Positions 1,690 through 62,068 of a stretch of 64,000 nucleotides of DNA are shown piece by piece. Location of the stretch: positions 4,464,001-4,528,000 of the forward strand of contig CM030332.1 in assembly GCA_017654855.1 (NCBI GenBank), read 5' to 3'. This stretch comes from Podospora anserina (lineage: Eukaryota). The first letter of the stretch is position 1. Each line of letters begins with the position of its first letter. Below the pieces are notes generated by a model, which saw nothing but the letters and a program-made list of their open reading frames with translations, did not search any database and had not been told where the DNA came from. The position numbers and the translations under genes were made by a program.

Positions 1690-1759
1690 AACTTTATAGT
1701 ATAGTACGTAGTACGTTAATTACTACGTTAAAAGTATAAATTTAATTCCTATCGAGGTT
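1690..1759 (+). other. tRNA-like cassette, heavily RIP-mutated copy, antisense to pol
   Basis: Colinear 70-nt homologue of 43468-43537 and 61999-62068; ends cctatcgaggtt. Confidence 0.55.
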
Positions 1760-14200: not shown

Positions 14201-16850
14201 CGTGAATAAAACATTCCATATTTTTTAGCCTGACAAAATTGTAATTTATAAGTGTACATAAATTATCATTAATTAAATAACGAAACGGTGAAAAATAATT
14301 ACCCGTTACTATTAATATTCGAGTTGCAGAAGTAATTAAATAAGGCGCGATACTTTATATATTTATATATAGATTAAAGAAGAGGATAAATAGAGAATAA
14401 CCTTTTATGTATCTTTGAACTATTTGAAATATCTCGTAATATTATTCGAATTACTTAATATATCTGTAACGTTATAATCTCTCGTTAATTATAAAATCCG
14501 GAAGTACCTCGATAAAATGATAATATATTATGTTAATAACTCCTGTATTTACTTATATATTTTAGAAAAATATAAGCGATATGTACGAAAGATATTCGAC
14601 GCGCTATACAAAGCTAGACTTTTAATTAATAAAGAAAAAAGCGAGTTTCATATATAAAACAGAACATATTCAGGATATTTAATATTATTCAACAAAGTTT
14701 AAATAAAACTTAGGGAAATTACGATAAATAAGGACTAAGCTACATTATAATTATAAATATACGTTAAAGAATTTTTAAGTTTTTAAATTTCTAATTAAAT
14801 ATATATCCGGAATTATGTATAAAAATAGCGTAATTAGTTAATCTTTTAATTAAGGAAGACATAGAGTTTCGGTAAAAATAAAAAAAGTAAGCCTTTTAAG
14901 AGTTAAAGGAAATTATTTCAAAAATCCGGTATTTAAAATATTAAACCTTAATCGACCGCTCAAAATCCAGGTTAATATATTAAATTATATAAGTAATATG
15001 TAATTAATTTAACAAAAGAATAATTGAAAATTATGTTTAATAACCTTTTTATTAAAAAAACTATTTACTATTATCAAAATATTTATAAAATAAAAGATAT
15101 ATTTTAATAGTATTAACTATAAAATGTAGAACTACACGGATTATAAAAAGCTATAATACTTTATTATTATAAAACATCTTAATATATATTAATTATGATA
15201 ATTAAAGTTTCTTTTAAAGTTTACTTTCTAAACTAATTATAAAAAGATTTCCAAAAACGTTAGAATAAACGTATTTAATTAACGAGTTAACCATTATAAA
15301 GATTCATTCAAGAAATTAGTAACATTATTTTAAAAACCCCTGAAAAGTATTTTTTAAATATTTACTTTAGCTATAAATAAAGTATTATATAAATACTATA
15401 AGTAAATTACATTTAATAAGTATTAAAGGAAGTTAAGTAACGATATTATGAAATAATATTAATAGGGAAAATTAAAGTTATCAAGTATGTAAAAAGATAG
15501 TTAAAGAAAACTATGGTATAAAAATCGAGTGTATATAAAGTTGAGGCATAGGACAATATTATTGATAAACATTTATCAATCGAAGTTCGGCGGATATATA
15601 AGTATTACAAAGACTATAGCAAATTTGAATAAAATTTTAATTAATTAAAGATTAAAAATAACATTAAAAAAAACTATTTAATGATATTATATATATAGAA
15701 GAACAAGGGTTATAAAGTATAAACTTGATGAATCTTTAAAGTTATTTTTAATTATAAAATAGCTGTAGAGTTCAATTACGATGAACTTTATTATTAAATT
15801 ACTAATGTTAAAGAATATCATAACTAGCGTTAAATATAATAGAATATTAATGAAAATCAATAAGTTTATTAAATAAACGTAATTTTTACTTTATAAAGAA
15901 ATTTAGTTGGCGGAGGAATTAGTGGATGTAATATTTCGGTATATTACAACAATATATGTAGTTAAAGGAGTTTATTACGGACCGCGATATTAAATATGTA
16001 TTAAAAATTTAAAAAGTATTGATAATAAAATTAGGGATAATAAACAAAGTATTTTCGGCCTATCACCCTTAAATAAATGATGAAACGGAACGGCTCATTT
16101 AAAATGTAAAATAATACTTACGGAGTTATATTTAATTTAAGTAGGACGATTAAATCAAATTATTTCCTATGGTTTATTTAGTATATTTGATATTATTAAT
16201 AAAAACGATTAAAGTTGTATTAACTTTTATAAATCTTATATACAAAGTAAATTCACGGTAAATACCTAATATAGAGGTATTTAGGGCTAGGGTTAAAGTC
16301 AATAAGTTATGTATACTTTATAGTAAACTTAAAAAAAACTGCAGTTTATAAAACAAAAAATACGGAAATATTGTAATACTAAAAGGCTCGAGGGACCTCG
16401 CCTTAAAGGAAAAATATAATTTTTGAAATATAATTTTTATATTAGAAAACTTAATAAGAAACTAAATTCTTAAAAAAATTATTTAATGTTAAAAGAAAGG
16501 TATTGAAAATAATACACGAATTAAAGCTACTTCATATAATATATTTAGAGTTATATACTTTTTGGATTTTATTTCTAAAACCTATATTACTGGTAAATAA
16601 ACTTAATATATAAAAGGTAGCGGAGGACGAAGAAGAAAAGTTTAATATAGAAAGGATATTAAATGTACGGTTTATTAAAGGTTATTTAAGATACTCATTT
16701 AGTTAATCAGGATATTCGGCTATACATAACTCGTAAAAACTAATAATAAATTTTAATTATTTAAATAAACTAAAGGAACTTTACCAATAATATTTAAACC
16801 GGCTAAAGCCAAGACAAATAAAAAGAAAGTATATTAAGATCGAAAAATAT
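11230..16850 (+). pseudogene. gag-pol: gag-pol pseudogene; ends approximate
   Basis: ggagtttattacggaccgcgat (EFITDRD) at about 15967, gaaacggaacggctc (ETERL) at about 16082, NNYPLLLI-like RT motif at about 14295, chromodomain EEKFNIERIL at about 16632. Confidence 0.88.
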
Positions 16851-16872: not shown

Positions 16873-16942
16873 AACCTCGACGGGAATCGAACCTATACCT
16901 CCAATATAATATGTAACGTACTATAAAATACATTTTGAAGTG
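16873..16942 (-). other. tRNA-like cassette antisense to pol
   Basis: Revcomp ends ggaggtataggttcgattcccgtcgaggtt (B box/T-arm plus 3' acceptor strand). Confidence 0.6.
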
Positions 16943-19900
16943 AATAGGTACGAAGGAATTTAAATATAAATAGCGTTATATATTTTAATTAAATTAAAAG
17001 GTTAAAGACGTATTACTAATAGTACTTTAGGTAGTTATGAAGGAGGGACCGGCTATATTATGATTTAAAGATAGGTCGGAAAGTTAATTCAAACATAAGG
17101 AGTGATATAGAAAAAAAGGTCGGACGGATAGCAACGGAGGATTTTACTATAGGATAGTTCGAAAAAGGGCGGAATAAATAAATTTTTTTTAAAAAGATTT
17201 AACCTTTTCTAAGTTTTCTATATTATTAAAACTATACGAGACGGTATAAAATATTTTTTTTAAATTAGAATTTCTTTTACTTTTTCAAACGAGCGACTTT
17301 AACTATATGGGTAAATAATTCGCCCTCTATTCTTTCTATATTAAAATTTAAATCAGTTATAATAAACGACGATTTTATAAAGGTTAAAGGCGGACAAGCC
17401 GCCGTCCTATTAAACGGACTAATAAAAAGAGATATAAAAGGAGTAGCGAAAGAAATTGAAAAAAAAAGTTCGGAAAAAATGAACGGCGTTAATAATAAGT
17501 ATAAAAATTAACTATAGCGGTAGAATTATATGAAATAATATTAAGTAAAGTATTACGATAAATAGTTTTAGGATAGGTAACCTTTAAATATTTTAAAATC
17601 TAATTAAAAAATACAGTAAAATATAAAAAAATAAAATGAAAAAAAGCCCTTATTATATTATTAATAAAAATGAAGATTAAACCGTAGGGACTTTAGCTTG
17701 AAGAAAGAGTATTATATTACGGTTTAGAAAAAGCAGAGACGTTAAGACTAAAAAAATTAGAATAGGTAAATAGGCAAAGCCTATAAAGTAAAGAATAGTA
17801 CGAGTTAAGGGATTTAGGTTTTAGGAAATAAATCTATAGATTTATTTAAATTTAGAGCTAAAACTAAGGATCTAGAATTTAGAAACTAAATCCAGGGGTT
17901 CTAGGGATTGAAGGATAAATCTAGGTAAGGAGGTACTTAAAGCCCTAGGTCTTTTTATACGGAGGAACTAGCTAGTAGAAATAAATAGCTCTGTAGTATA
18001 AAATTTAAGTTATAATTGTTAGTATTTAAACTATTGTAATTGAGGTAAGCTATTTATTATATACTATTTAGCTGTACCGAACCAGTATTGTTTAGAAGTG
18101 CATTTAACTAGTATACCTTTCAGAGGTTCTGGATAGGGCTTCGTCACACATGGTTCCCGGACTCAATTTGATTACTCCGTCCTGGACCGTAGACCGTAAG
18201 CCCCGTTAAAGTCTCCAGTTTCGATATTTTTAACATAAGTTTTTCCGCTTTTACCGTAACGATACTTAAACGTGTATAAAAATATTACTATACAACTAAA
18301 GAATTCTTTTTTACCTCGTGTATTCTTTACCGTGATTACTCCGTTATATTTATATTCATTATTTTTCTCCTCAATTTCCTTTATTATAATCTTCGGCTTT
18401 TCCTTATATTCTCAATATATACGTTATAAAATTCTATATAACAGCTCTAATATTAATTTCGCGTGTAAATATATATTTTTCTTCCTTCCTATATTATAAC
18501 AAACAGTCCGGTAATAACCCTGGCGATAAGCAATATAATAAATTAAAATATAAAAAGTAAAAGCTTAAAAACTTAGTTTATTTTTTATTTTATTTTTTGA
18601 GTAAATTAAACGCGCCGTTCTCTTTGTTCCCGTGAAACACGATTATTCGTACATAATATTCAGGAGGAAGATATATACATAGCGTAATCCACTACCACCG
18701 CCCTAATTATATACATATTTAAGGCTTCTTTACAGCTTACCGCCATTCGGAACGTTATTCCGTAGGATCCTTTTACTTTAGATCTTTTTTAGGCTTTAAT
18801 ATCATACTCATCTTTTTCTAAACCCACTATAGCCGGGCTCTTTTTCATAACCGATCGGAGTACCGCCGTCAAACTTTTGTGATTTTTTACAATAATTAAA
18901 AGATATAAGAAATTGGTGTAAATTATTCATAGCCGGATAATTTAATCAATTGTTTAAATATTTTAATTACCTTCGTTAATTTATAAATCTAATACTTTTT
19001 TAATATCCTTAGTACTTTTAAGTATTAACTTTATTTATTAGCAATAAGGGTTTTAAAAATAAAATATAAAAGGTGTGTAACCTTAAACGTATCCTATTAA
19101 GTAACTTAAATTCCTATATCGTTTCCAATATTGTCTTTTAACTTTAAACGGTCCTACCCTTTCAAAGTCCAGTTTTTTACTTAGGTTTTTAGTACGAAAA
19201 TAATATATAGAAAAAAAATTATTTTCTTTTTTCAAATAAGGGTTTTTAGGCCTATTAAAATTATGATCCTTATAAACCCTTGCTCTTATGAACTTTAAAC
19301 TTTCCTTAAAGTTACCGTAAAATATATATTCTTTATTTATCCTAACTGTTACCCTAAGTACTCTATACTAAGTCCTTAAAGTAGGTTTAATTTATATATA
19401 TAATTTGCAAAAACCAGTATAATCTTAATTATCTTTGTTGAGAATATATTATATATTAAGTATACCGTATGCAATATTTTAATTTCGTTATTTTATTCGA
19501 AATTAATATATTTTCGGAATTACTACTTTATAACTCAGATTAACCGTTTTGTCTGCCCATTTATTTAAAAGTAATAAACTAATAATATTTCACTTTTTAC
19601 ACCAAGCCTCTTTATTAACGTTTTTGAAAACTGTAAATATGAATTTGATATTATAGCTTATAATAAATTCTTTCGGCTATATATATAATAACGTAATATT
19701 CCGTAGTACTATATTTGATAGTTATTGTACCGTTTAAATCTTTTAACAAAGAAAATATTTATTTAATAAACCTATAGATTACTATGACTATATTAGTATA
19801 TATAATATTAGTGATGATATTTTTAAACTTCAGTAATTCAATAATCATCGGCTATCAATAATGGTTTTAAAAATCTACAATGTTTATAATTTATAGTTTA

Positions 19901-22900
19901 AGTCTTTTATACGTATTATATGACTAAATAACTTTTTTAATTGTTTTTTTATCTTCGGCTAATTAAAATACTACTTGATTTTCTTTATATTTTTAAAAAT
20001 ATTTATATATCCTCCAAACTGTAACTAGTAAATTTGCTTTAATAATATCATCCTAGTACCTAGCTTTATATAAGTCCAGTTTATATACTGTAATCGTCCC
20101 CGATTATTTTTTAAATACCCCACGGCTTTAGCTTTTCCTATTAATACTATTCGGTAGTATTACTTTTAATTTTCCCTTAATATCTCCTAGAAGTAATTTA
20201 CTCGCGATATATAACGTAATATTTTATTAAAGGTTAAAATAAATCTTTAAAGATGCCTTCTGGTCTTTTTTTAAGTAATTATGATAATTTCAAAAAATTA
20301 TTTTTGTAGTAATTTGCTTACTAATTAAACGTATTTAGCTTAACTTTTTCGATTTTTTCTAATAAATAATTTGAAATAGAAATAATAATATTTTTATATA
20401 TTTAGTTTACTATACGTTAAGAATCTTCATCATAGTAAAATACTGTATATTGTTATAATCCGTATACATATATACTTCGTAATTAATATTACTAGAATAT
20501 AGTCTTTATCTTTCGAACACTTTAATGATAAGGAGTAGTTTTTTATTATAAATTAAATAAGTTTAACGAACCCTCTTTAACTTTTTCGAAAAAGATTACT
20601 AGGTATCATTTTCCGTCTATATTTCGCTGATAGAATTATCTTCCGATCGTATAATTTCATACATTTACTTTATTGTTAAATAGCTGATTAAGGTTTAATA
20701 ATTTAAATACCGGATCTTTTAAAATAACCTCTTATAAATCCCAGAATGTTTTCTTTTTTTACACGTAGTAAACTCTACATTCTTTTAATCAAGTAATGAA
20801 ATAAACATACAGTATTTATGACTTCCCGATAAATATCTGATAGAAATTAATAAATCGTAAATCACTTTTTAAATATATTTATAATTACCGCGTAACTTAA
20901 TTTTTTAATAGCCGTCACTTTTTTACACTCTATATCAATTCGATTTAAACTTATATACTTTAAATATATGTTCTCTTAAATATAAAATTTATTCTTTTCT
21001 TTCTTTATTCAAAATCTGATTCCGTATAATACGTGTAATATTTCTTATACCGAATATTTATATTTCTATAAAATATATAAAAAACTGAAATATGATACAA
21101 ATAGCATAGTACTGTCTTATTAAAGTACTTCTGAATGAAATAATTTATAAAAATAAATAAAATGTTACCGGTATATACTACTAAGCCTAGATATTGTGAC
21201 GCGTTACTCGAAATAACTATAAAATATAGAAAATACTTTAATTTATTAGTTTGCTTTTTGAGTCTATATATAAGCGTACCCGTTTAATATATTTTAATAT
21301 ATAAATTTATTACCCCGGTTGATTAACTCTATCATTTAAAAACTAATAAAAGTAAATAATTATATTTTACGGTTTCGTTATTTACTTAGTAATAATCTAT
21401 AATTTGTCGTGACCTACCGTTTTTTTTCGGTACGAAGAAAAAAGATGTTCTATTAATAATTTAAAATTGTTAATCTACCCTTTCTTTAAATTCTTATTTA
21501 AATATTTCCGTAACCTTTTATTTACTTATCGCCAGTAAAATAAACCTTACGTAACCGTAATTTAACTCTTTTGTTAAGTTTACTTTTCTCAACCTACGGT
21601 CCTTACTTTAATAATCCGTCTAATTATAAACGTAAAAGTTAAATACCCGCAGTATTTCACCAGTACCGCTTTTTGCTATATTTTTTTATAATATTATAGC
21701 AAATATATTTATTAATCGTGAATATTTCTATTAGCATTATAAAGTTTATTTTCTTGATTGTACTATTTATATCGATACAATATAACATAACTCCCTAGAA
21801 TCCTAATAGTAATATTAAAGAAAGTATTTATTTTATATTTTACTCTATATATACGTTTTATTTTTATCGTTAATTCAATAATAGTAAAAGTATTTAATTA
21901 TAGAAAATTATAGTTCCTTTAATTAAATCTGGAGTTATAATCTTTATATTATAACTATTTCGAAATTAGAATCTTTTAGAGGTTTTATATATATTATGTT
22001 AAACAGAGTTAAACTTATTCTTTTAGACGGTAATATTTAAAGGTAACGTTTGTTTCTAAACTTTTGAAATCCAAAAATAGGTTTTTATAATCAATCTTTT
22101 TTTCAAATATTTTTTGTTAATATATAAACTATGGTAAAAATAAATTGGTTTCTATACTATTATTTATTCATATTACCGTTTAATATACTATAGCCTAAAG
22201 GTGTTTATTTTTCTTATTCCATTCCTACATAGTGAAGGTTTTATTAATTAATGTAGAATCGTTGTTTTATACTTTTACGTTACGTGTATACTTTCGATGG
22301 TATTATTTATAAACCTTAAAGATTACCGGTCCTCGTAAAAACCTATAAAACCTTTTTGCGTTGTTAACTTTTAACAGCGTACTTTTATTTCGAATTAACC
22401 TATAATATAAACTGGATTAGGTATTACCGTTAAATCTTTTTACTTTCCGTTTTTTTAAAGTTTATTAAATCTTTTTCCGACTATACTTCCGTTTCTTTCC
22501 TATAATCTTAGCTTCAGTTTCGGCTAGTATATTATAATACCGTTTAGCCTTTACTTATAAGTAAAATATAGAATTAATAGTTTTATAATATATTAAATTA
22601 TATCTAGTTATTCTAATTATACTATATTTTAAACTTTTTATATATTGTAGAAACTATCTTACGCATATAAATAGAACTTATATAATTTCAAAATTACCTT
22701 TTTATTTCACTAAACTTAATACCTATTATAAAAAATAATCGTTTATCTTTTTTTATTAATACTATTTTATTATTATTTTAGAAACTAGCTTAAACTTTCC
22801 GTCCTTACTTACTTACCGTACCCGCTAATAATTCTAATATACTTTATTTTAATAATACTTTACATATTAATATATCATATATTAATAGTAAAATACTTTT

Positions 22901-38500: not shown

Positions 38501-41500
38501 TCCAAGATATTCAAAATGAGAAAGAACTATAGGAAACTTTAGGTATATAAAATACAATACTTTAGTACTGGCTCGAGCTATTATATTCAAAAAAAGAATT
38601 AAGTTTAGAAGTGGAGAACTTATTAATCCCTAGGTAAGGGTAGTTTGTTTGGTGCCTTTTCAAATGTAACTTATTGGCTAGATTACCCTTCTCTAATAGA
38701 TTAGTGATGTAAATTTAAAAAACCTGTAGAAGCGTACTAAGGAATTTATTCCCGCTGTATTAATAATATATAAAATTTAGGAAAATTCCTAATTGATATC
38801 CAAAGGATAAAAAGCTTATTAAAATAAATGGTGAAAATTATTGTTTAACTGGTTTTTATTGTTTTATATTTCAAATCTTAATTATAACAATAATACGTTA
38901 ATGCTTATATTTTTGCCTTTTTTTAATAATAATATCCAGATATGATTAAGAAAATAAAACTAGTAAACACAGTTAGATATATTCATCTTAATAGTATTTA
39001 GGATTACTTTACAAGAAATTCTAAATTTTTTCAAGAACAATTCGGCTAAAAAGAGGTTTTCTAATAACTATACATTAGATAATAATTAATAAGAACAAGG
39101 TTATGTTTTTTATTATGAGGTTAAAATACGAGAAGTTTATAGAGTGGTTTAATTAGGTATTAAAGGGCTCCGGGTAAAAAGTGGTAGTAGAGAAAAATAT
39201 TAGAATGATATGAGAATAGTCGGTAGAAATATTATTAATTTATTATTAATCGTTGCCGAGGAGACTTAGAAAGTCAATGTAAGTAGTGTTCAAGAGTTTA
39301 TATAGTCCAAAGATTATATCACGTTGACTTGTAAAAGGTTAATTATTCATAATTACTACATGAATATTTGTAATGAAAATTAATGTTCATTTTTGGCTTT
39401 TAAAAGAACTTGCAGGAAGAACTTGAATAGATATTAGTTTTAAGCTAGTAATTAAATAAAAAGATAATTTTCAAACTTTATAAATATTTCCAAATTATTC
39501 AAAAGGTTTGGTACTATTATTATGTTAAAAATTCTCTTTTTAGAAACTTTGTCAACTAGTTTTTTATAGGTAAATTGCTTTCTTATAAAAGTTAGAGTAA
39601 AAAAAATTTAAAGTCAAAGGAATAATCATATATTGAATTTTTCCCTCAAAGCTCTGCCTGTTTATAACACTTCATTCATTAAATCTTTTCTTTTCTTCTT
39701 AACCTTTTAATACTCTAATAATATACTTGTCCTTTTTTATGAATCAAAAGTAAAATATTTACATTTAATTTAGTTATTTTACCTATTTAAAATATTGAAA
39801 ATATATAATTATATCAGCAAACCTTTTAATAACTTTAAAATTGTCATAGACGAAGTTAAATTACATTTTTAATTTAATATTACTTTAAATATAAAATATA
39901 GTAATATTATTACTTCTAATCTTATTAAAAATTAAATCATTTCTAGTAGTTGGGGTTTGGAAAGCTAGAATTTTGGGTAGAATGGTTTTTAGATTATATA
40001 GATTATTTTGTTTTTAAAATAGTGAAATATTTGAAATGTTAGAATTTACCTTCATAATGAGGGTATACCGTTCATGATGTTGAGTAGACGAATGTTATAT
40101 TAATTAGTTTTCGATATAATAAAAAAGTATATTTTCCTCGTAGTGTTCTTTGAAGGGTTTTATTATTATAATTCGGGATTATTTTTGTTTTCTATTATTA
40201 GTATTTATTTCATCATTTGAATAGTCGATAAGGCTACTGTTTTTCTTTTTTAAAATAAGCTTCACATTTGTTTTTGTAAAGAAAAACCCTATTTAGTATT
40301 ATTGAATGAGTTGAAATTTTAAGTAAATAAATACTATAATTAAAACCAAGATTTTATTTTTACTTACAATGAAAGTAAAGTATATAATATCAAGATAATA
40401 TATAACCAATGAGAAAGGATACAATTCCTTGATTGTTAAAAATATTGAAATCTTTAAACAGTTAATATATGGGTACTTTATAAACCTAATCTTCTTGACT
40501 TTAACTCATTTTTCTCATACTAAAAATAAACTATTAATACTTTTGTTTAATTGAAGTTTTAATCTGTTTACTATTAGGGCAATAAAAAATAAGCGGTTAC
40601 TTTTTACTTCCGACAGAGAATATATTTTAACTTTATGCATGATAATACAATAATTTAGCCCTATAAGTGTATTAACTAATAACCATTTAAAATATAAAGA
40701 ATTTTAGTTATTAAATTATTAGTGATACCGGAATATTTTAGATTAATTAGATAGTGGATATTCTACTTTATTTATATAGTATACAGCATATAATACGGGA
40801 GCTAAAAAAGGAAAAGTAATCCATTTATAGATTTTAGTATTACTTACCATGTAATAAACCCGCGATCAAGCAATTCTTAATGAAGGAAGTAATTAACATT
40901 TAATGGAAGAAAATAGTCGGAGAAATATGTAAAAAGTTGAATCATATTATTGTAAATACGGAACTGTAGTGTTATATAGTATTACCATTTCATATATTAT
41001 ACAATGTTAATGTTAGGTAATAATGTTAGGTATTAATGTTAGGTATTAATGTTAGGTATTAATGTTAGGTATTAATGTTAGGTAGTAATGTTAGGTATTA
41101 ATGTTAGGTATTAATGTTAGATATTAATGCTATGCATCGATTATTTTTGGACATTTTATAGTATATACACCAATAATTATGTTTATATCTTTTATAGTGC
41201 TCTTTTATACTACAAATCATAAATAACCTACATAATTTTACAATTGCATCAATTTAGTTTTTAAAAGGCCGGATGCTAATACAATTCAAAATAATGATTT
41301 CAGTATCTTTCAATTTCAAGTTCAAAATTAAATACAGAAAGAAATGTAAAACAGTTCTTAAATTCTTAAAATTATGAAAAGGTTTATTCGTATCATTACA
41401 TAATTTAAAAACTTTGAATAAATAGCATATTAAAATCAAGTATTAGTTATGTATTTCCAATACAAAAAAAACAAATTATATAACGATACAAAGGTAGTAG

Positions 41501-42122: not shown

Positions 42123-43467
42123 TGTCACGGTTTTGGAAGACAGTGGAGACGTAAGGAATCAATCAGAGCTGGACCGAGCAATAGAGCGGGACTCGCGGTC
42201 CATGTGGACGGACCGGACCAATAAAATTGGTACCGGGGACCGCGGCGGGGCTCACGGTCCACGGTCTAGTATCGGCTAATACAGAAAGAACCGAGGACCG
42301 TCTGGGAGTCAACGGTCCACGGTCCCTAGGTATATATATACGGAAGAACTAACTAGTATAAATAAATAGTTCCGTAGTATATAATTATAAATTATAATCG
42401 TTAATATTGAAACTATTATAATTAAAATAAACTATTTATTATATATTATTTGACTATACCGAATTAGAATTACTTAAAAGTACCTTTAACTAATATCCCT
42501 TTTACAGGTTCTAGATAAGGGTTGGTTATATATTATATATTTATTTTAATTTTATTATAAATAAGTTAAGAGCGTCTTTTTACTATTATAGCCTGACCTA
42601 ATAGAATTTAAATAGGAAGCGTTTTACTTAGCTTAAATAACCAAGGAGCTTTTACAATAATTATTGAACTTAAATTACTTCGCTTCTATAACTTATCGTA
42701 TATTATAACGAACCCCTGTACAGAACCTCTGAAAAGGATACTAGTTAAAGGTTACTTCTGACAATTAGTTCGGTACGGCTAAATAACGTATAACAAGATG
42801 TCTCAATGTAAACACAAGATACCGTGAATACAAGCTGTAATTACATACTGCGGAACTATCTATCTACACTAGCCAGTTCCTCCGTATATATAGACCTGTT
42901 TATTACTATTATTACGAGTGATAATGTCGATTATCACTCGTCGTTCACCGAAGGCTAGTAATAATCGTAATTATTACCCTTAGCGCTAGTAATAATTTAA
43001 CTTCCTTACTTTTTTATTTTAGTAGTTAGACGGATCGCGCCCCGCGCTCCCTACTTATATCAGGTCCGTGACATAATGCCCCTCCTCCAGGTTAACGTCC
43101 CGTTAGCCTAGTTTTGTCGACTGCATACGCTCTTCTCGTCTCCCTTCTCTTCTTCGTAGGTCTTCCTTCTTATCCTTTAATGGCCTAGCTGACGCTATGT
43201 TTATAGTAAAACCTCTATCGTCGTCTGCATAGTACCGTACTAAACTCGCTCAGAATATTACTAAAAACGGCTTCCTCAGCTCCTTCCGACTTTTCTTTCC
43301 TGGATCCTTCCTTAGGCTTCAACTAGCCTTCTGACCTTCCTTTGGATCTTAGTACGGCCGGTCCTTCTTTCCTAACTCCGCAAGGTACCGCCAATAGCGC
43401 GCTTTCTACTTCCTAGGGTGGTTGAGACGTATAGCACTACTTGCATCTGGGTTTCCTTATACCTTTT

Positions 43468-43537
43468 AACTTCGTAGTATAGTGTGTAGTACGCCGGCTA
43501 CTATATCGAAAGTATAGGTTCGATTCCCATCGAGTTT
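43468..43537 (+). other. tRNA-like cassette (copy 1 in this element)
   Basis: aacttcgtagtatagtgtgtagtacgccggctactatatcgaaagtataggttcgattcccatcgagttt. Confidence 0.62.
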
Positions 43538-43673
43538 CTTTTAAATTTAGAAAAGCCCGACAGGTTTTTCTAAGTTTAGATATTATTTTGCTCGCTAGTA
43601 ATACTTTTTCGACCTTTCTTACGATAGTAGAGGCGTATAGTGTTAGTTGGGCCTAGATTCCCTCATATCTATT

Positions 43674-43743
43674 AATTTCGTAGTGTAGTGCGTAATATAT
43701 CGATTACTATATTAAAAGCGTAGGTTCGATTCCTGTTAAGGTT
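43674..43743 (+). other. tRNA-like cassette (copy 2 in this element)
   Basis: aatttcgtagtgtagtgcgtaatatatcgattactatattaaaagcgtaggttcgattcctgttaaggtt. Confidence 0.6.
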
Positions 43744-46700
43744 CTTCGGTATTTAAGTTTATAAGTACTACCTGTAATCCTAAGTACTAATCTTTTATTT
43801 ATTTAGGTTTTGGTCGGTTTAGGTATTACCGGTAGAATACTTTTTATTTATTTAGGTAATTAAGATTTACCTTTAGCTCCTATAAATTATGTATAGCCGG
43901 ATATTTTAATTAATTAATTAAATACTTTAATTAACTTTTATTAAACTATAAATTTAATATTTTTTTTATATTATACTTTTCTTTTTCGTTCTCCGCCACT
44001 ACCTATATACTAGCCTTACTTACTAGTAATACGGGTTTTAAAAATAATATATAAAAGTGTATGACTTTAAATGTATTGTATTAAGTAGCTTTAATTCGAA
44101 TACTATCTCCGAGATTTTCCTTTTAACCTTAAATAGGCCCATTCTCCTGTAGTCTAGCTTTTTACTAAGTTTTTTAGTACGTGAATTACGTATAAAAAGG
44201 AATGCTATATTTCCTCCCTTAAAACGAGGTCTTTTAAGCCTTTTAGTATTACAGTATTTTTATATTCTTTCGTTTATAAACTTTAGTTCTTAGTTAAGTT
44301 TACTGTAAAGTATATATAGCTTATTTACTTTAACCCTAACCTTCGGTACTTTAACGCTAGGTCCCTATTATAGGTCTACTTTATATCTAAAGTTTACGAA
44401 GAACGGTATAGCTTTAATTATTTTTATTAGTAATATATTATATATTAATTATACTATAAGTAATAGTTTAATTTAATTGTCTTGCTCGAAATTAATATAA
44501 TTCCGTAAGTATTATTCTACGATTTAATTAAACCGTTCCGTTTGACCGTTTATTTAAGGGTAGTAAGCCGAAAATACTTTATTTACTACCCTGAGCTTCG
44601 TTATTAATACTCTTTAAAACTTTAATATAAATTTAATATTACGGTCCGTAATAAGTTTTTTCGGTAATATATATATTAATATGATATACCGTAATATTAT
44701 ATTTATTAAATACTTTACCGATTAGGTCTTTTTATAAGGTAAGAAATATATTTATTTAGTAAGCCTATCGACTACCGTTAATATACTATCGTATTTAACG
44801 CCGGTTATTTTATTTCTTAACTTTAGTAATTTAGTATTAAAGTTTATTATAATTAAATTCTATAGTCGTTTTACTATTAGTAATAGCTTTAGAAATCCGT
44901 AAAGCTTATACCTCGTAATCCTTATTCTTTTATACGTATAGTATAACTAAATAACTTCCTTAAAGTTATCCTTAATTCTAGGCTAGTTAAAAGTGCTACT
45001 TAATCTTTTCTATAGTCTTCGCAATACCTATATATCCTCCGAATTTCGATCCGTAAATTTTTATTATTAATATTATCCTATTACTTAGTTTTACGTACGC
45101 TCGATTTTTATACTATAGTTTTCCTTAACTATCTTTTTAAATACCTTATAGCTCCAATTTTTCTTATTAATATTATTCCGTAATATCGTTACTTAACCTT
45201 CCTTAATACTTATTTAAAGTAACTTCTTTACGATATACTATATAATATTTTATTTACGGTTAAAGTAAATACTTAAAAATACCTTCTACCGTTTTTTTAA
45301 ATGATAATAATAATATTTTAGGTATATCTTTATAGTAATCGGCTCGCCGGCTAAATATATTTATTTTAGTATTCTCCGATCGCTTTTTATAATTAATTTA
45401 AAAATTAAATTCCGAAAGAAACTTTAACTATTATATTTACCGTATATTAAGGACTTTCGTAATAGTAAAATATTATAGGTTTTTATAATCCGTGTAGACC
45501 TGTACTTTATAATTAATATTATGAAAGTATAGCCTTTACTCTTCGAACACTTCGATAATAGTAAGTAGCTCTTTATTATAGATTAAGTAGTTTTAACGTA
45601 CCCCTTTTAACTTTTTCGAAAAGAAGGCTACTGGATATAGCTTTCCGTTATTATTTTGCTATCCTAATTATTTACCGATCGTATAGTTTAATATATTTAC
45701 TTCGATTTCGAATAGTCGACTAAGGTCTAGTAATTTAAGTACCGGATCCTTTAAAATAGTTTCTTTTAGTTTCTAGAAGGCCTACTCCTCTTCCTACCCC
45801 CACCGGAATTCCGCATTTTTTTTAATTAAGTAGTTAAATAATCGCGCGATTCTTACGTACTTACGAATAAATATCCGATAGAAATTCGTAAACCTTATGA
45901 ATTTCCTAATATATATTAATAATTATAGCGTAAGCTAGTCCTTAACTACCGTAATTTTTTTAAGTTCTATACAAACCTTACTTAGCAATAGTAAATATCC
46001 TAAATATATTATTTTTTATATATAAAACTCGCTTTTCTCTTTATTAATTAAAAGTCCGGTTCAGTATAACGCGTCGAATATCTTTTATATATATCGCTTA
46101 TATTCCTCTAAAGTACGTAAATAAATAAGAATATTATCGAGATAGTATATTATTATTTTATCGAAGTACTTCCGGATCGTATAGTTAACGAATAATTAAA
46201 ACGTTACGGGTATATTAAGTAGCCTAAATAGTATTACGAAATACTTAAAGTAGCTATAGGGTATACGAAACGCTATCTTTTATTTATTCCTTTCTTTAAT
46301 CCGTATATAGGTGTACCCGATAGGTATATTTAAAATAATTTTAATTATATTCGATATTATAAATATAGGACCCTCGAAAGATATAATTCTAAAGTAACTA
46401 TAGTATAAAGATTATAACTTAGATATCGATTAGAGGGACGGTAGCTACCTATAACTAAGAGAGCCTTAAAAGTATCTAGCTAACGATAGGAGATTAAGCG
46501 TATGTATAGAGCAAAGTGTGGGACAAGCACCCTCTACGGTACTACCGTAAGGAGCCTAAAAAGTAATAGTATACTTTATCGATATAGGCGGTAAGATTAA
46601 AGAAGTAGGGTTAATAATATTGGTGGAGATATCGGAGGTTAATAAATATATTTATTATAATAATATAAAAAAAGACGAGAAAAAGGTAGTACCGATAGAA

Positions 46701-49472
46701 TATCGAAGATACTTAGCTTTTACGGTTAAATATTTAGAAGTACTTTTAGAGCGAGGACCGTAGGACTATAAAATTAAGTTAAAAGAAAAAGCTAAGTTAT
46801 AATTATTTAAAGTTTATTATATTAACGATAAATAAAGTAAAAAGCTATAGAAGTATTTAAACGAAAACCTAAAGAAAGGATATATTAGGGAGTCTATATT
46901 ACTAATAGGATACTTTATATTCTTCGCACCGAAAAAGAATAGTAATTTATAACTATATATAGATTATTATTAATTAAGTAACGAGACGGTAAAAAACAGT
47001 TACCCGTTACTATTAATATTTAAGTTACGAAGTTAATTAGTTAGGGCGCGATAATTTATACACTTTTTTTCGACTATAATATCCAAAAGTAATATTTCTC
47101 TATAGACCTTTTCTATTAAAAATAGTCTTTATATAATAATCTAATTTTTTTTCCTATAGTATCCTAACTTAGTATATAAACTATAACGAAATTAAATTCG
47201 TCTTTATATTTCTATTTACTAATACTATTATTTAAATATTCTTTTAGTATATTATAATTTAGAAATATTTATTTTTCTTGCCTCTTCCTTATATAATAGT
47301 AACCTCGTTAATAAGTACCGGATCGTTATCCTATACTTTCGTTTTATACCGATATTTCCGAAAATACCGTTTGTAATTTATTAAAGGTTACCGGCTCCCG
47401 CAAAGGGCTATAAATCGTTTCCTAAATGGTTATATCGTTTAGAGGCGTTTTCTTATTCGGGGTTATTTAGTAATATAAAGTTTTTTAATTATATCCGCTT
47501 AATTTCCTCCTATTTTTTATCTCTTACGTATTTAATATTCTTTTATATATATATTTAATAGCAGTTCTTCTCCTTAATTATTTATCTTATTACTTTACTT
47601 TACTAGTATCCGATAGTTACGACCTCTATAACTCTTAGTCTCTTCGATATAGTAGTTACTACGATCTCCTTTTTCCATCCGAATCGCTTAGGTACCTTAT
47701 AATCCTTTTTAAAGTATCTTACCTTACTATAATTAAAATACTTAAAGTTATTTTTGCCTTAACCTTATAGTTTTTATTACTAAATAGTATTAACCTCTAT
47801 GGGTCCTACGTAAGTAGTCCCCGAAACGTAAGTCCCGTACGGCCGTCTCTTCCTCTTATCGTTAAGGTAGTAGGGTCCTTATACGCGTATGCCCTTACGC
47901 TCCTTGCGGCGTTAGTATTATCGATCGTTAATATAGATTACTATTACGATATACTCGTCGATAGTCTCCGGTCGCTCTATTCGATATAGCTTATCCTTAA
48001 TTTTTTCTTTAAGCCCGTTATAGAATAACTATATTAACCCTTCGTCGTTAATTATACTACGGAATATATTTATCCTAAATACTATAGTATAGTTAATAGT
48101 AAATCGAGTTTACTTAAAGTTAGTTAGTCGCTCTTAGGTACGCCTACCCTCGTTATATTCTCTAAACACCTTTTTAATTTTTTTTAAAAACCTTTATACG
48201 ACTTAAAATACTTTTTAATAATATCCTCCCTCTCGTTATACGTATTATCGAAGTAGTCTCCTTAAGATCGGCTCGAATTATATAAGTATTATATTTTTAA
48301 GCTTAGATATAATATATATAATTTTAGATTCCTCGTCCGGGAAACGAGAAGGGTAATACCGAAAGTAAGCCTTAAGTTAGATTAGGAATCCTCTTAGCTC
48401 TCCTTTTATACCTCTATAGCGATCGGGTGCCTCGAGCTTAGTACGCTCTTCTTCCCTACGTAAGATACCGATCTCCTGGTAGAGTATAGCGTTCTTTTAC
48501 GTAAGGGTATTATAGGAAAGGCGTAATTTATCCTTAAGCTTTTAGATACGAGCGAGAAGCTGGTCGATAGTAGGTTAAGTAGATACTTTTACTTAAGTAT
48601 TAATATTTCCGGCTATAGCGTTAATTTAATACCTTTAATTTATTTATAATAGAGTTAAAGTAAGTATATAACGTATAACGAACCTCTATATAGAACCTCT
48701 AAAAGGGATACTGGTTAAAGGTTACTTCTAATAATTAGTTCGGTACAGCTAAATAGCGTATAATATATTATTTTAATATAAATATAAAATACTATAAATA
48801 TAAATTGTGATTATATACTGCGGAACTATCTATCTACACTAGCTTGTTCCTCCGTATATATAGACCTATTTATTACTATTATTACGAATAATAATGTCGA
48901 TTATCACTCGTCGTTCACCGAAGGCTAGTAATAATCGTGATTATTACCCTTGGCGCTAGTGATAATCTGACTGCCCCACTTTTCCGTTCCAGTGGTTGGA
49001 CGGGTCGCGCCCCGCGCTCCCCATTTATGTCAGGTCCGTGACATATATTAAGAAGCTCGAGGGTAAGGTTTAATAGATTAAAGACTAAGTTATCCTTATT
49101 GTGATTGAACTTAAATTAATACTTAAATATCTAATACCGGAATATTACAAAGAAAAAGAAAATAAAACTCAAAGGGGTTTTTATCTAACTTAAAACCTAT
49201 TTTCGTTACTATTTAAATTAATTTACTACTAAAAAGTCAAAAGTAATTTTCGTAATTACCAAACTTAAACATAAAGCTTTCGCGTAGTTTGAACCTATCA
49301 TTAATAACTATTACTAAAAAAAAGACGACCAAGAAGAAATTACGGTTTAATACTTTAAAAACTATTGCGTTTTCGAAATTAAGCTTAAGGAAGTATTTAG
49401 GGAGTACGATAAAGTAAAGCGCATGTAAAAAAGACTTGTAAATCTACGTTAACGTATTTATTAGCGGATTAC

Positions 49473-49858
49473 TGTCACAGACCAACCATATAGCAAGACC
49501 GAGTGAAAACTGCAGCAAGCCGTGGTAGCCAATCAAGGGAAATGTAACGGCGGGGCTGCAGGGTGATGAGGCGCTCACCTCTTGGCAAGGGTGAGCCGGA
49601 TCACTACCGCTCACCAGTGAGCCGCGTTGAGCCAGGTACGGAGGTACCTGAGGATCAAGGTCTATATATACGGAGGAACTGGCTGGCGTAAATAGACAGT
49701 TCCGCAGTATGCAATACAAGTCACACTCGTTGGTATCTAGACTATTGTGATCGAGACAAGCTATTGTTGTACACTGTTTAGCTGTACCGAACCAGGATTG
49801 TTGAGAAGTGCCTTTAACCAGTATCCCTTTCAGAGGTTCTGGATAGGGGTTCATCACA
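49473..49858 (+). mobile_element. Solo LTR (type E), unmutated, with non-matching flanks
   Basis: tgtcacagacc...ggggttcatcaca; flanks attac / aggga. Confidence 0.92.
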
Positions 49859-52800
49859 AGGGACCGAGGATTATAAAAGTTATAGTCATTGGGTGTTCAG
49901 AAGGCGAAGCGATAAGCTTCGAGGAAAACTTTAATTAACTCGCCGAATAAAAGAAAGAAAAGTTCTTGGAATTACAGAAAGTAATGGAAAAGGTAAAAAT
50001 AAAGTATAATGAAGGGAATTCTTAAATACGGACGTTATAGGATTAACTAATCTAAATTACTCCAGAAACTACTACGGAAATTATCAAAGATATCGACCCT
50101 ACATAGTAAAAAGGACCTATCCGGTAAGCGATATGAAAAAATTAATATTACTAATATAAAACTATAATTATATAATAAATACCCTGATTATAGAAGTTCG
50201 TATTTAACATGTAAATTCATTTTTAAAAGGATAAAAAGGTTCTTAGTATTAAAACCGCGAAAAGGATAGATGAAATATCTTTACCTATAGAGAATATACC
50301 TTTAAAGAAAATGTAGTATAACTGTATTTTAAATATCCGGTATATCGAAACTTATTTTACGCTTAATATATTATACATAAATATATAACATACTATTAAA
50401 GTAAGTTACTATACAGTTATTAACTAGTATATAAAGTAGGTAAAAAAAGTAAATTATGATGAATTAAAAGGGACGATATTTACATAAGAAAAAGCTTAAA
50501 ATAAACTAAACAACTACTTTTATAAAGAGTTTAAGATCCAGCAATACCAAAAGATAACCTTTACGTAAGATAGTTTATACTTAAATATATAAATTTTACT
50601 TTAAATTTATAAATTAGGGAAATATAAATAACGGTATAATTTAATAGAGAAAAGTAGTATTAGTGTAGTACTTAATCTCTAAATATACGTTATATTTCTA
50701 GAAAAAATTTAAGCGAGATTACTAATGAATAATAGACCTTAAAATAACGGTTAAATAGCGGAAATATAATTGGAGGTAGGCCCGATGAAATATTAAAGAC
50801 GGAAAACAAAAAGAGGGTTAACGGTAGAAATTAAAAATATTTGCGTTAGTAAATAATTTAAAGGAGGACAACGCTTTTAAACGATATAAACGGTTAAAAA
50901 ATAATTCGCGGCTCTTTATAAAGGCTGGTAACCTTTAACGCACTACAAAAGGTACGGTCGGAAGTATCCGCGTAAAGTAAAAATATAAAATAACAGCCCG
51001 ATAGTCGTTAATAAAGTTACTATTACTTAAAAATGAGATAGAAAAGATAAATATTTTTAAATTATAATATATTCCCAAAAATGTTTACGTAATAAAACAA
51101 GTAAATACAAATATAAAGATAAACCTATTTTTATGTACAATGTATATATATAAAGTTAGGATATTGTAAAAGAACAAGAAGAAATAAATCGTTATAGAAA
51201 AGCTATTTTGAGTATAAAAAGTCCATAGAGAAATGCTATTTTTAAATATTATAATCGAAGAGAAAATAATATTAATTCTATTGTGTATTATGAATTTAGG
51301 ACCGTCGAAAAATTGAATTTTAAAGTAATTATAATATAAAAATTGTAATTTAATTATCGATTTAAGAAATAGTAACTACTTACGATTAAAAGAACCTTAA
51401 AAATACTTAGGTAACGATAGGAAATTAAAAGTACGTATAAAATAAAGTATAGGATAGGTACCTTCTATAGTACTACCGTAAGAAGCTTAAAAAGTAGAAA
51501 TACACTTTATTAATGTAAGCGGTAAGATTAAAAAAGAAAAGTTAATAAAGTTAGCATTTACGGCTAAATATTTGGTAGGACTTTTAAAGCAAAGACTATA
51601 AAATTACAAAATTAAATGAAAAGAAAGAACTAAATTACAGTTATTAAAAACTTACTCTACAAACGATAAATAAAATAAAGAATTACGGAAGTATTTAAAT
51701 GGAATTTTGAAGAAGAATATATCTTAAAGAGTTTATATTATTGGTAGTATACCCCGTATTCGTTGTACCGAAAAGAAATAGTAATTTACAACATATATAC
51801 AGATTATTACTAGTTAAATAATAAAACGGTAAAAAATAATTACCCGTTACCGTTAATATTTAAAGTCCGGAGTTAATTAATAGGGCGCTATATTTAATAG
51901 CTTTAAATATATTTATCGAGTAAACCTATATGGATTAAGGAAAGTAATGAATGAAAAATTGCGTTTCGTATACTTTATAATTCTTTTAAATATCTCGTGA
52001 TATTATTCGTATTAAATAATACGTCCGTAACGTTTTAATCTGTTGTTAAATATATAATCTAGAGGTATTTCGATAAAATAATAATTCATTATTTTAATAA
52101 CAGTTTAATTTACTTACGTATTTAAACAAGAAAATGTAGGCGATATATACGAAAACAATTTATCGCGGGATATAGAACCGGATTTTTAATTAATTAAGAA
52201 AAAAGTAAAGTCTATAAATAAAAGATAGTATATTCAAAGATATTTAATATCATTAAGTAACGTTCGGATAGAATTTTGGAAGATTACGGTAATTAAGGAC
52301 TAGCTTATACTATAGTTATAAATATATATTAAAGAATCTTTAAGATTTACCAATTTTTATTAGATATTTATGCGAAAGTATATTAAAATTACGCGACTAT
52401 TTCACTATTTAATTAAGAAAAAGATGAAGTTTCGGTAAGCATAAAAAAGCCAGGTTTTTTAGAAGCTATGGGAAATTATTTTAAAACACCTAGTATTTAA
52501 ATTATTAAACTCTAATTAATTATTTAATGTGGAAGTTAATATATTAAATTATATAATCGGTAAAAAATTAAATCGGCGAAACGATAACGGAAAACTATAT
52601 TTAATAACCTTCTTTTCGAAAAGATTGAAGAGGGTATGCTAAAAATTATTTAACTTATAATAAAGAACTATTTACTATTATCGAAACGTTCGAAAAGTTG
52701 AGGCTATACTTTAATAGTATGAGTTACGAAATAGAAGTTTATATTGATTTTAAAAACTAATAATACTTTATCATGATAAGGGTCCTTAACATATAGTAAA

Positions 52801-54484: not shown

Positions 54485-54554
54485 AACTTCGACAGGAATC
54501 GAACCCGTACCTTCGACGTAATAGTTAATGCATTATGTATTATATATCAAAGTT
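54485..54554 (-). other. tRNA-like cassette antisense to pol
   Basis: Revcomp aactttg...tattacgtcgaaggtacgggttcgattcctgtcgaagtt. Confidence 0.6.
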
Positions 54555-59694: not shown

Positions 59695-61554
59695 ACGTAT
59701 ATTATAAGCGAGCGACCAATATAAGCGAGCGACCACTTTTTCACAACCTTTATATCATTATCCTCAATTACTACACAACCATACTAAGAAGCAACCATAA
59801 TTACATCCGAAATAGCTGAATCAGACAATTCTATAGCCTCCTGGCAAGTGCGCGCATTATGGCCAGGCTTGCCGCACACACCACAGCACTGAACCTTCGT
59901 ACGAGCCCCCCCTGCACCACCGCTATCCGGCTGTATTTCTTCCACTGCCTCCCCACCCACGGCCTTCTGGTCCAGTAGATCCTGTGCATCTTGCACAGTA
60001 AGTGATCCTCCGAGCCGTATACGTGTTTTTTTAGCTCTCCGGCGCTTACTTAGTGCCTCATTGGCCTTGCGGAGCGAAGAGACCTCTGCCTGTAAGAGGG
60101 CTACTTGGTACATTACAGCTATCGTACCCTTAGTAAATTAATCTATAGCACCTAATATTAAAGTCGGGGAACTATTTTAATAGTTAATAATACGAGTCTT
60201 AATAAACGTAGAGTATAAGTTAGCTTCTCGGGGGTTTTATAGTATTTAAAATACCTAAGGGAGTGCTGTACCCGGCCTTAAGGATGGGGGTATTAGCGTA
60301 CGAAACTTTATATTTAACTTAGAAAGTACCCTCTCTGAATCGTATAGTATAAAGCTAGTATCTATAAAGCTACCCTATATATTTTTCTCCGTTATAGAGG
60401 TAAAAAAAGCCTCGCGGAAAGTATAAAGAAACTCGAGCTTACTTACGTAGTTAATATATATATGCATTAAGCCCTCGATCTGGCGGCCGTACGCCTGTTT
60501 TAGCGGCCTAAAGTAGCTAATATCGAGTGGCTGGAAGAGGTGAGAGGAGTGTAGAGGTATATAGAGCGTAATAATATTATTCTGTTAATAGTAACGTTTG
60601 AATTTAATTAAGTGGTAGCTTTCGTAGCTATCGAGGATTAATAACCGGTATTTGCCCTTCGTACGGGACGCTATATAATAGTTAAAGTACTTAATTTAAT
60701 CTAAGCTTACCGGATTAGTAATCTAATTATTATCGGTAATTATAATACGCTAAGTAAACAGTAAATTATACTCGGTATATTAATTAGTAAGGTAGTACTA
60801 TACGGTTAAAATAATAAAAGGTAGAATAGTTTAGCCGAAAGTATTAACTCCCTAAATTACCGTTACTTACTCGCGGTTACTAGGCTAGGCCAATTTTACT
60901 TTACTAAAGCCGTCTAAGGTTATAATTACTATACCTACAAAAATAATACCTATTATAAACCTAATCTCGTCGAAATTATAAATATTATTATTTATAATAC
61001 CGTACTTAGCCTTAGTATTCCGTACAAGCGTAAACTACTCGGTAATAACTTTCGGATCCTCGCACTTAGCCCTCTAGTAGTCGTATCTATACGTAAAACG
61101 CGTACGGAGCTATAACTAACGTTTAATAAAATTATATGTCTAGAGCTTACTAATAGGGGGCGCGTCGCATACGCATAGTAATTGGTTAACTATATTTTCC
61201 ACTACGTAACCTTAGTGGAAAAGCTCGCGTAAATAGCTTAATAATATAGTAAATAATAGCCTCCTTTTCGGATTAAGTAAGCTTCTTCGATCTGGGCGTA
61301 GTATCGCGTCGTGTAGGCCGGCCGGCGCGTCGGTTAGAGAGAGTTATAGGTGGTACGTTATAAAGCTTAGCTACAACTCGGAGGCTTAATTTTTCGTCCT
61401 TTTGGAGAGCCTCAAGGGCTAAGAGTATCCTGGCTTCCTTTAAAGTAGGAGGCATGTTGGGTTGTGGAAAAAATTGATGTTAGGTGTAAGGAGGACGCGT
61501 CGTGGTGGAGACTGTACGACTCGCTTATATGTACGACTCGCTTATAATATACGT
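59695..61554 (-). mobile_element. pogo/Fot1-type DNA transposon (second subfamily), 1860 bp
   Basis: TIRs begin acgtatattataagcgag at both ends; TA TSD; inserted in the integrase C-terminal region. Confidence 0.94.
59784..61455 (-). pseudogene. DDE transposase pseudogene
   Basis: Track ORFs give the N-terminus MPPTLKEARILLALEALQKD and a C-terminus with CCGVCGKPGHNARTC. YNFDEI at about 60965-60983 and HSSHLFQPLD(I) at about 60520-60553. Internal stops. Confidence 0.93.
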
Positions 61555-61998: not shown

Positions 61999-62068
61999 AA
62001 TCGCGACGGGAATCGAACCTAGGTTTCCGACGTAATAGCCGGCGGACTCTATATAATATTACGAGGTT
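61999..62068 (-). other. tRNA-like cassette antisense to pol
   Basis: Revcomp aacctcgtaatattatatagagtccgccggctattacgtcggaaacctaggttcgattcccgtcgcgatt. Confidence 0.62.

Follow-up and report, generated by a model that had tools for sequence, protein, structure and literature searches.

A 64,000-nt stretch of the Podospora anserina genome (assembly GCA_017654855.1, contig CM030332.1, positions 4,464,001 to 4,528,000; hereafter the window) holds a nest of long terminal repeat (LTR) element copies, and one family of Ty3/gypsy chromoviruses among them carries, a short way past the chromodomain and in the opposite orientation to pol, a 70-nt segment that is derived from a tRNA. Half of this tRNA-like piece is unusually conserved, suggesting that the element once made use of it. 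Taken as a whole, the observations are best explained by a founding element that captured the sequence in reverse, by selection that kept one half of it, and by annealing of that half to a tRNA, an explanation to which we assign a probability of roughly 0.3.

The window is AT-rich (17-37% G+C), and the differences among its LTR-element copies are chiefly C/T and G/A transitions, as left by repeat-induced point mutation (RIP) in fungi. An earlier reading of the letters alone, here called the first-pass annotation, had listed six collinear 70-nt copies lying antisense to pol after the chromodomain, and its coordinates, strands and alignment were all borne out (Table 1). Three copies lie on the forward strand (starting at 1690, 43468 and 43674) and three on the reverse strand (16873, 54485 and 61999), each of them antisense to pol. 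A scan of both strands of the window in an alphabet collapsed for transitions returned exactly these six 70-nt places at 85% or above. About 100 nt on either side of the six copies is collinear as well, with differences that are mostly transitions. Of the 72 columns in the core alignment, 24 are invariant, 35 vary by transition and 13 by transversion; between the copies at 43674 and 1690, transitions are the sole differences.

Two of the six copies (43468 and 43674) belong to a single element, copy 3, where a 206-nt tandem duplication has doubled the site. This duplication is private to copy 3 and is skipped by the other genomic copies, of which up to 16-17 beyond those in the window cover the tRNA-like site on contigs of the same organism. 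From a seventh family member, a deletion of about 240 nt has removed the C-terminal end of the chromodomain, the spacer and the tRNA-like segment, leaving the block beyond in place. Within the window no stand-alone copy with the head, body and tail of a short interspersed nuclear element (SINE) was found, and all six copies sit in the same Gypsy context.

The first line of evidence for tRNA derivation comes from the Rfam covariance model RF00005, which matches the raw sequence at 43468-43538 over its full length with 31.4 bits (cut-off 29, E 0.013). Two further forward-strand copies score below that cut-off, at 24.2 bits (1690-1760) and 18.8 bits (43674-43744), and the three reverse-strand copies give no tRNA row. 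The first-pass annotation had made its tRNA interpretation depend on a significant covariance score and had proposed a consensus corrected for RIP as a check, and on both counts the interpretation stood. One mutated copy passes the cut-off as it is, and ARAGORN, which at default settings calls no tRNA in the raw window, places one tRNA exactly on the core of a transition-corrected consensus of the window copies, in which C or G is taken wherever any copy keeps it. The isotype of this call is '???', and there is nothing in 200 nt of flank. When the columns of the core were shuffled, none of 1000 consensus sequences was called a tRNA.

The fold agrees with the cloverleaf outlined by the first-pass annotation: an acceptor stem of 7 bp, a canonical B box within the T arm, a weak D stem, an anticodon loop of only 6 nt, and an isotype that cannot be called. 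All 21 cloverleaf pairs form in the consensus and 15-19 of the 21 in raw copies. The acceptor stem and the D, anticodon and T arms are all present, the D stem being weak and built mostly of G-T wobble pairs. The B box, GGTTCGANNCC at about position 52, is intact in five of the six copies, and the T loop holds no transversion column. The anticodon arm is abnormal in every copy, with either a 6-nt loop or a 4-bp stem and an 8-nt loop, and the Rfam alignment needs a deletion in the anticodon stem. Since the anticodon loop has only 6 nt, the segment was never a decoding tRNA in this family. A fragment of one further genomic copy suggests that two anticodon-loop positions were C and G before mutation.

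It might be argued that all of this is a chance resemblance and that the segment does not come from a tRNA. The silence of ARAGORN on the raw copies at default settings and the three copies that lack a tRNA row would fit such a view, as would a folding energy whose z score is only -1.07 in the tRNA sense (-0.95 in the pol sense, neither value being informative). Set against these are the raw copy that exceeds the curated Rfam threshold over the full 71-position model, the failure of every shuffled consensus, and the combination of a perfect B box with a 7-bp acceptor stem. Coincidence is accordingly a highly improbable account. An apparent older, partial tRNA-like copy upstream (local alignment score 30, mean of the shuffles 20.5, p about 0.026) derives from an over-corrected, GC-rich consensus and is not relied on. 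All told, the family very probably goes back to a single capture of a tRNA-derived sequence, in reverse orientation, in its founder, from which every descendant inherited it; the window copies have since been inactivated by RIP.

RIP does not make transversions, and transversions therefore record older divergence between lineages of the family. The 13 transversion columns of the six-copy alignment fall at positions 1, 8, 9, 14, 15, 17, 20, 24, 30, 31, 47, 66 and 68, and their distribution is uneven: the tRNA-like 5' part holds 10 in 31 columns, compared with 3 in 41 for the 3' part (Fisher p 0.011). Six of these 13 columns fall between positions 8 and 20, the A-box and D-loop region. The better kept part is a 38-nt half that runs from the 3' strand of the anticodon stem through the variable region and the B-box-bearing T arm to the 3' strand of the acceptor stem. 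Read in the pol sense, it forms the first 38 nt of the segment, with no transversion column among four copies and two among five. Windows of 38 nt taken along pol hold 4.2 such columns on average, and only 0.1% of 919 are as low as the conserved half.

The surroundings are far more diverged than this half. In the spacer just before the site 37% of columns show transversions, and beyond +61 the figure is 46-64%. Counted per 60 nt over five copies, transversion columns number 4-12 in pol, 15-28 in the spacer after the chromodomain and 9-14 in the segment itself. The 60-nt windows that start 76 and 106 nt past the sense start of the segment hold 13 and 21, and those from 136 nt onward hold 21-47 where they are mostly aligned, two gap-heavy windows at the end being lower. 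Because transversions cluster in the 5' half, and because the 38 nt of the 3' half are cleaner than 99.9% of pol windows, what was maintained appears to have been a linear half-site. We infer that selection acted on 38 nt of nucleic acid, rather than on the cloverleaf, on a full promoter with A and B boxes, or on a peptide. That the segment had some function in cis as nucleic acid is probable.

The peptide alternative deserves a closer look, for pol might read through the segment as part of a basic C-terminal tail, in which case conservation would lie at the protein level. The first-pass annotation had itself named coding on the sense strand (EPRRESNP...) as an explanation that could account for the conservation. 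The pattern is not codon-like: transversions are spread over the three codon positions as 6:2:5, with no excess at the third. Read in the chromodomain frame, three copies have TAA straight after the last pol residues that can be aligned, and the other two have CAA and ATA. The five copies share no stop until about 30 nt past the segment. The corrected frame can stay open through the whole segment, which the pol tail may therefore overlap, and related proteins do carry basic, Arg-rich tails of 10-35 residues after the chromodomain. However, the correction for transitions removes stops by construction, and by a rough hand estimate about one in six random frames of 77 codons would be open at that G+C content. 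Moreover, copies 2 and 6 carry indels of 1 nt and 5 nt ahead of the segment, the spacer, which would also have to code, is the least conserved part of the region, and the tails of relatives are not conserved, differing even within one cluster at 90% identity. A protein search with the tail of copy 6 gave five candidates, none at E <=10. Read-through coding is for these reasons an improbable source of the conservation.

The B box invites a different explanation. By recruiting TFIIIC to integrated copies, with or without RNA polymerase III (Pol III), it could have served as a chromatin boundary or positioning site or have given rise to a short antisense RNA. As judged from the sequence, we hold this to be unlikely. 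The conserved half does contain the B box, which is letter-perfect in five of six copies and untouched by transversions, and an A-box-like motif survives in the least mutated copies, such as that at 43674. Miniature terminal-repeat retrotransposons (TRIMs) with Pol III promoters derived from tRNA or 5S sequences are also known, according to Kojima 2024 (PMC10886601). On the other hand, conservation extends over 27 positions outside the 11-nt B box, and the transversions massed in positions 8-20 fall where an A box should be. The suggestion of the first-pass annotation that the segment might serve as an antisense Pol III promoter finds no support as regards a complete Pol III gene: its A-box and D-arm half accounts for 10 of the 13 transversion columns, and a TTTT run follows the 3' end only in the more mutated copies. 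Since the copies at 43674 and 61999 keep a C or G that breaks this run, the founder probably had no clear terminator. The insulator role that the first-pass annotation also raised may still apply to the B-box half. A boundary element would be indifferent to orientation, and because a single origin makes all copies antisense, their orientation speaks neither for nor against such a role.

Chromatin boundaries at tRNA genes or at extra-TFIIIC sites (B box only), and insulators derived from SINEs, offer the nearest comparison for such a role, the common feature being a B box with no conserved A box, which could bind TFIIIC without making a tRNA. Those examples are found at loci of the host or in SINEs; to our knowledge, none has been described as a module fixed in the interior of an autonomous LTR element.

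Annealing of a tRNA to the genomic RNA remains the use that we favor, and the events behind it may be pictured as follows. A founder chromovirus would have captured the tRNA-derived sequence in reverse, between pol and the 3' LTR and some 60 nt beyond the chromodomain. While the family spread, selection would have kept the half matching the tRNA's 3' part, and the A-box and D-arm half would have drifted. In the sense genomic RNA the site is the exact complement of a tRNA 3' half, starting from its last encoded base, with the polarity of a primer-binding site (PBS). It would anneal a cellular tRNA, or a tRNA-like stretch at the 5' end of the element's own RNA, and such annealing would resemble the 3' segment of the bipartite PBS of Ty3, bringing the ends of the RNA together. 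That the site was an RNA-level docking site complementary to a tRNA, with PBS polarity, is a possibility drawn from this analogy and, taken by itself, a rather doubtful one. In its fullest form the proposal is of a second docking site, 38 nt long and located toward the 3' end, which would hold the 3' part of the genomic RNA to a cellular tRNA or to the U5 end of the element itself, which is tRNA-like, as an independently evolved analogue of the Ty3 arrangement in a lineage whose 5' PBS has no tRNA match and which may prime itself; this more specific version is unlikely.

According to the Ty3 review PMC5371799, about 4800 nt separate the 5' and 3' PBS segments of Ty3, and the 3' RNA pairs with the tRNA's T and D arms. 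The likeness is that genomic RNA near the 3' end, far from the 5' PBS and of the same polarity, is complementary to internal parts of a tRNA. In Ty3 the 3' segment is made up of short boxes within U3 and matches the same tRNA, initiator Met, as the 5' PBS (PMC5371799).

Several results weigh against tRNA annealing and the explanation built on it. The segment differs from the Ty3 site in being 38-70 nt long, in lying 400-1300 nt before the LTR and not in U3, and in having a 5' PBS region that it does not match. The sequence next to the 5' LTR shows no match to the 3' end of the tRNA-like segment or to the same tRNA, and no complement of CCA (TGG on the sense strand) stands before the site. The three bases there are AAA, GAA, TTA, ATA and AAA in five copies and are not derivable from TGG by transitions. 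Because the complement of CCA is missing, the docking site could not prime by itself. No compensatory stem change was seen, and the 13 transversion columns break pairs; the test for such changes is unusable here, since RIP makes both C-to-T and G-to-A changes and double changes from G-C to A-T arise without selection. The conservation test itself draws on five to six copies, three of them close kin, its 38-nt window was picked after the data were seen, and the AT-rich spacer with which the half is compared is perhaps partly misaligned.

Nor did related elements yield a counterpart. The best 80 of 568 confirmed metagenome chromovirus loci, drawn from at least 577 candidates, were searched, 58 of the 80 having at least 300 nt after pol. 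ARAGORN at default settings found no tRNA in any of the 80, Rfam at its gathering threshold gave no match in 20 of them, and an nhmmer profile of the block had no match in the 80. A looser ARAGORN setting produced 18 scattered calls in 17 loci, none adjoining the end of pol. These loci are distant, the best having about 31% amino-acid identity to the mutated translation, and the null therefore shows only that the segment is not a general feature of chromoviruses.

The source tRNA likewise failed to appear. A 21-mer covering the T arm and acceptor had no exact match in viral and metagenome contig collections, the latter the source of more than 560 chromovirus loci, and we know of no cellular tRNA with this 3' half. 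Its one match in 185,579 prokaryote genomes was to a bacterial tRNA-Arg(CCT) in a metagenome-assembled genome of the Spirosomataceae (L081, 4829-4901). This tRNA shares six of the seven bases of the acceptor 5' strand with the segment and is identical to the corrected core at 50 of 76 aligned positions; as a source it was rejected, and the match is treated as coincidence.

The segment might instead be a neutral passenger, a tRNA gene or the head of a tRNA-derived SINE that landed in a permissive region between pol and the LTR of the master copy. Its absence from the 80 related loci (20 in the case of Rfam), its defective anticodon arm and the lack of compensatory change all speak for this account, and the region between pol and the LTR is long and copy-specific in this family. 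In plant Retand elements, pol-to-LTR regions are known to gather extra sequence (PMC11963269). The antisense orientation would also find an explanation, in that antisense copies may have been tolerated because a tRNA fold on the sense strand of the genomic RNA would invite cleavage by RNase P/Z. What a passenger does not explain is that, in transversions, the 3' half equals or surpasses pol in conservation, whereas the adjoining spacer and the 5' half do not, and we place this account on the unlikely side. A neutral passenger and a TFIIIC site are thus close rivals of tRNA docking; coding and chance trail behind.

The relation of the segment to the normal sites of priming can be stated more plainly. 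It lies after pol and not directly downstream of the 5' LTR, and neither LTR of copy 3 contains a tRNA-like copy, all six copies being internal; the first-pass annotation was right to say that this is not the PBS position, and the segment is not in an LTR either. Its idea of a self-supplied RNA fares less well as regards a primer, given that the sequence adjoining the 5' LTR is unlike the tRNA-like 3' end and no CCA is encoded.

Two features of the LTR touch on priming. Reverse-complemented, the 11 nt that follow the 5' LTR (48663-48673) match the LTR at its position 227 (about 48817-48827), at 9 of 11 positions exactly and at 10 of 11 when transitions are allowed. The matched site is 43 nt downstream of a TATATA box and has no TGG start, and it offers a weak lead toward self-priming in the manner of Tf1 rather than priming by a tRNA. 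Separately, the last 30 nt of the LTR (42704-42740 and 48674-48710, and also 18120-18150) carry GAGGTTC and GG(G)GTTCG motifs. These have their complements on the sense RNA in the initial bases and the T-loop portion of the conserved 38 nt; a rough estimate puts such 7-8-bp matches at the U5 end near chance level.

The carrier is a Ty3/gypsy chromovirus of about 6 kb, with reverse transcriptase, RNase H and integrase in that order, a C-terminal chromodomain, LTRs and a polypurine tract all present (Table 1). The translation of pol from integrase to tail, with X at stops, was compared by phmmer with 1.84 billion representative proteins and gave 10,908 matches at E <=1e-3, the best at 1.5e-55 and 35% identity. 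Pfam assigns RVT_1, RT_RNaseH, Integrase_H2C2, rve, SH3_Tf2-1 and a C-terminal Chromo domain to two relatives, P0003 and P0158, the latter taken from the 90% cluster of match P0004. In copy 3, whose pol lies on the reverse strand, a 1-nt frameshift separates the end of the SH3-like domain from the chromodomain; copy 1 does not have it. The 3' end of the tRNA-like segment (43743) faces the end of pol, about 60 nt past the last residue that can be aligned to relatives. Past the segment come about 100-190 nt of common sequence and then a purine-rich, copy-specific stretch of 600-850 nt before the LTR, copy 3 having only about 200 nt of copy-specific sequence there.

Table 1. Positions of the tRNA-like copies and of the carrier features in the window
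Feature	Position	Strand	Basis
tRNA-like copy 1	1690..1759	+	RF00005 24.2 bits; collinear
tRNA-like copy 2	16873..16942	-	alignment; 3' half (T arm and acceptor) unmutated; no RF00005 row
tRNA-like copy 3a, distal unit of the tandem duplication	43468..43537	+	RF00005 31.4 bits, model positions 1-71
tRNA-like copy 3b, at the family's standard position	43674..43743	+	RF00005 18.8 bits, 141-nt search
tRNA-like copy 5	54485..54554	-	alignment; no RF00005 row
tRNA-like copy 6	61999..62068	-	alignment; no RF00005 row
206-nt tandem duplication, units 43410-43549 and 43616-43755, one tRNA-like copy each	43410..43755	+	repeat search, 71% identity, spacing 206
Best-conserved 38 nt (copy 3b); pol sense, complement of the tRNA-like 3' half	43706..43743	-	transversion counts
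Flank 5' of the tRNA-like segment, moderately conserved	43281..43467	+	family homology stops at 43281; loose ends of other genomic copies there
Chromodomain of pol, copy 3	43805..43990	-	tblastn, C-termini of relatives P0015 and P0063
Integrase C-terminal SH3-like domain, copy 3	44038..44259	-	Pfam SH3_Tf2-1 E 6.8e-6, below curated cut-off; tblastn 44259-44086
Polypurine tract adjoining the 3' LTR	43079..43088	-	direct reading and alignment
3' LTR, copy 3	42704..43073	-	direct repeat of 48674-49045 (5' LTR), 86% identity
5' LTR, copy 3	48674..49043	-	86% identical to 3' LTR
Seventh family member; chromodomain end, spacer and tRNA-like segment deleted	18571..18920	-	pol 18919-21309 (-)

Other features of the nest were recorded along the way. 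A segment of about 730 bp in copy 3 (46332-47065) is inverted relative to four other members (4348-5079, 13638-14359, 21322-22019 and 51263-51899). The 3' part of the LTR is represented by two pieces of about 200 nt, at 42328-42530 and 42704-42897, that form a head-to-head inverted pair, and this piece recurs at least 15 times in the window, in both orientations and joined to differing upstream LTR parts. A tandem array with a 13-nt unit occupies 40981-41162, where ten 65-nt windows stand in register at 13-nt spacing. The longest open frame of the window, 150 residues at 49444-49896 on the reverse strand, falls within a stretch that is richer in G+C and overlaps an LTR-like piece. Another reverse-strand frame, of 117 residues at 59784-60137, shows a motif resembling a Cys-His knuckle, little RIP damage and no Pfam match; it is probably part of a younger nested element, since the pol of the copy ending at 61999 surrounds it.

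The carrier shares its domain order, LTRs and polypurine tract with fungal chromoviruses of the Tf1/Tf2 type, and differs in having a tRNA-like segment, ARAGORN at default settings having found no tRNA in the 80 related loci. Should the conserved half prove to be a site of tRNA annealing or TFIIIC binding, it would represent another route by which retroelements co-opt the tRNA system, and it would give the stretch from pol to the 3' LTR, which has been little studied, a cis-element open to testing. There is a practical side as well, as relics of this sort inflate counts of tRNA pseudogenes in fungal genomes.

In the open-access literature searched, tRNA-like modules of LTR elements occur only in the LTRs of miniature, non-autonomous elements, namely Helenus and, with a 5S sequence, Cassandra. 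No description of an internal, antisense tRNA-like arrangement was found in open-access full text, a body outside which lie journals behind subscription, entries in Repbase and the Kojima 2024 supplements. Helenus/TRIMp3 elements are non-autonomous, 311-1263 bp long, and carry the tRNA-like sequence inside their LTRs as a proposed Pol III promoter; fungal Helenus is reported there from Pucciniales and some Agaricomycetes (Kojima 2024, PMC10886601). There are two points of likeness to the present segment, in that the tRNA-like part of Helenus/TRIMp3 and Cassandra is usually not a functional tRNA and that its proposed origin is insertion of a SINE or tRNA into an ancestral element (PMC10886601). 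By location in the LTR, by non-autonomy and by orientation, however, the Podospora segment falls outside Helenus, TRIMp3 and Cassandra. Its carrier is autonomous and about 6 kb long, and the segment is internal, single-copy per element and antisense, with only the B-box half conserved. What is new in this comparison is an autonomous element with an internal, backward tRNA-like module in which selection is visible on one half.

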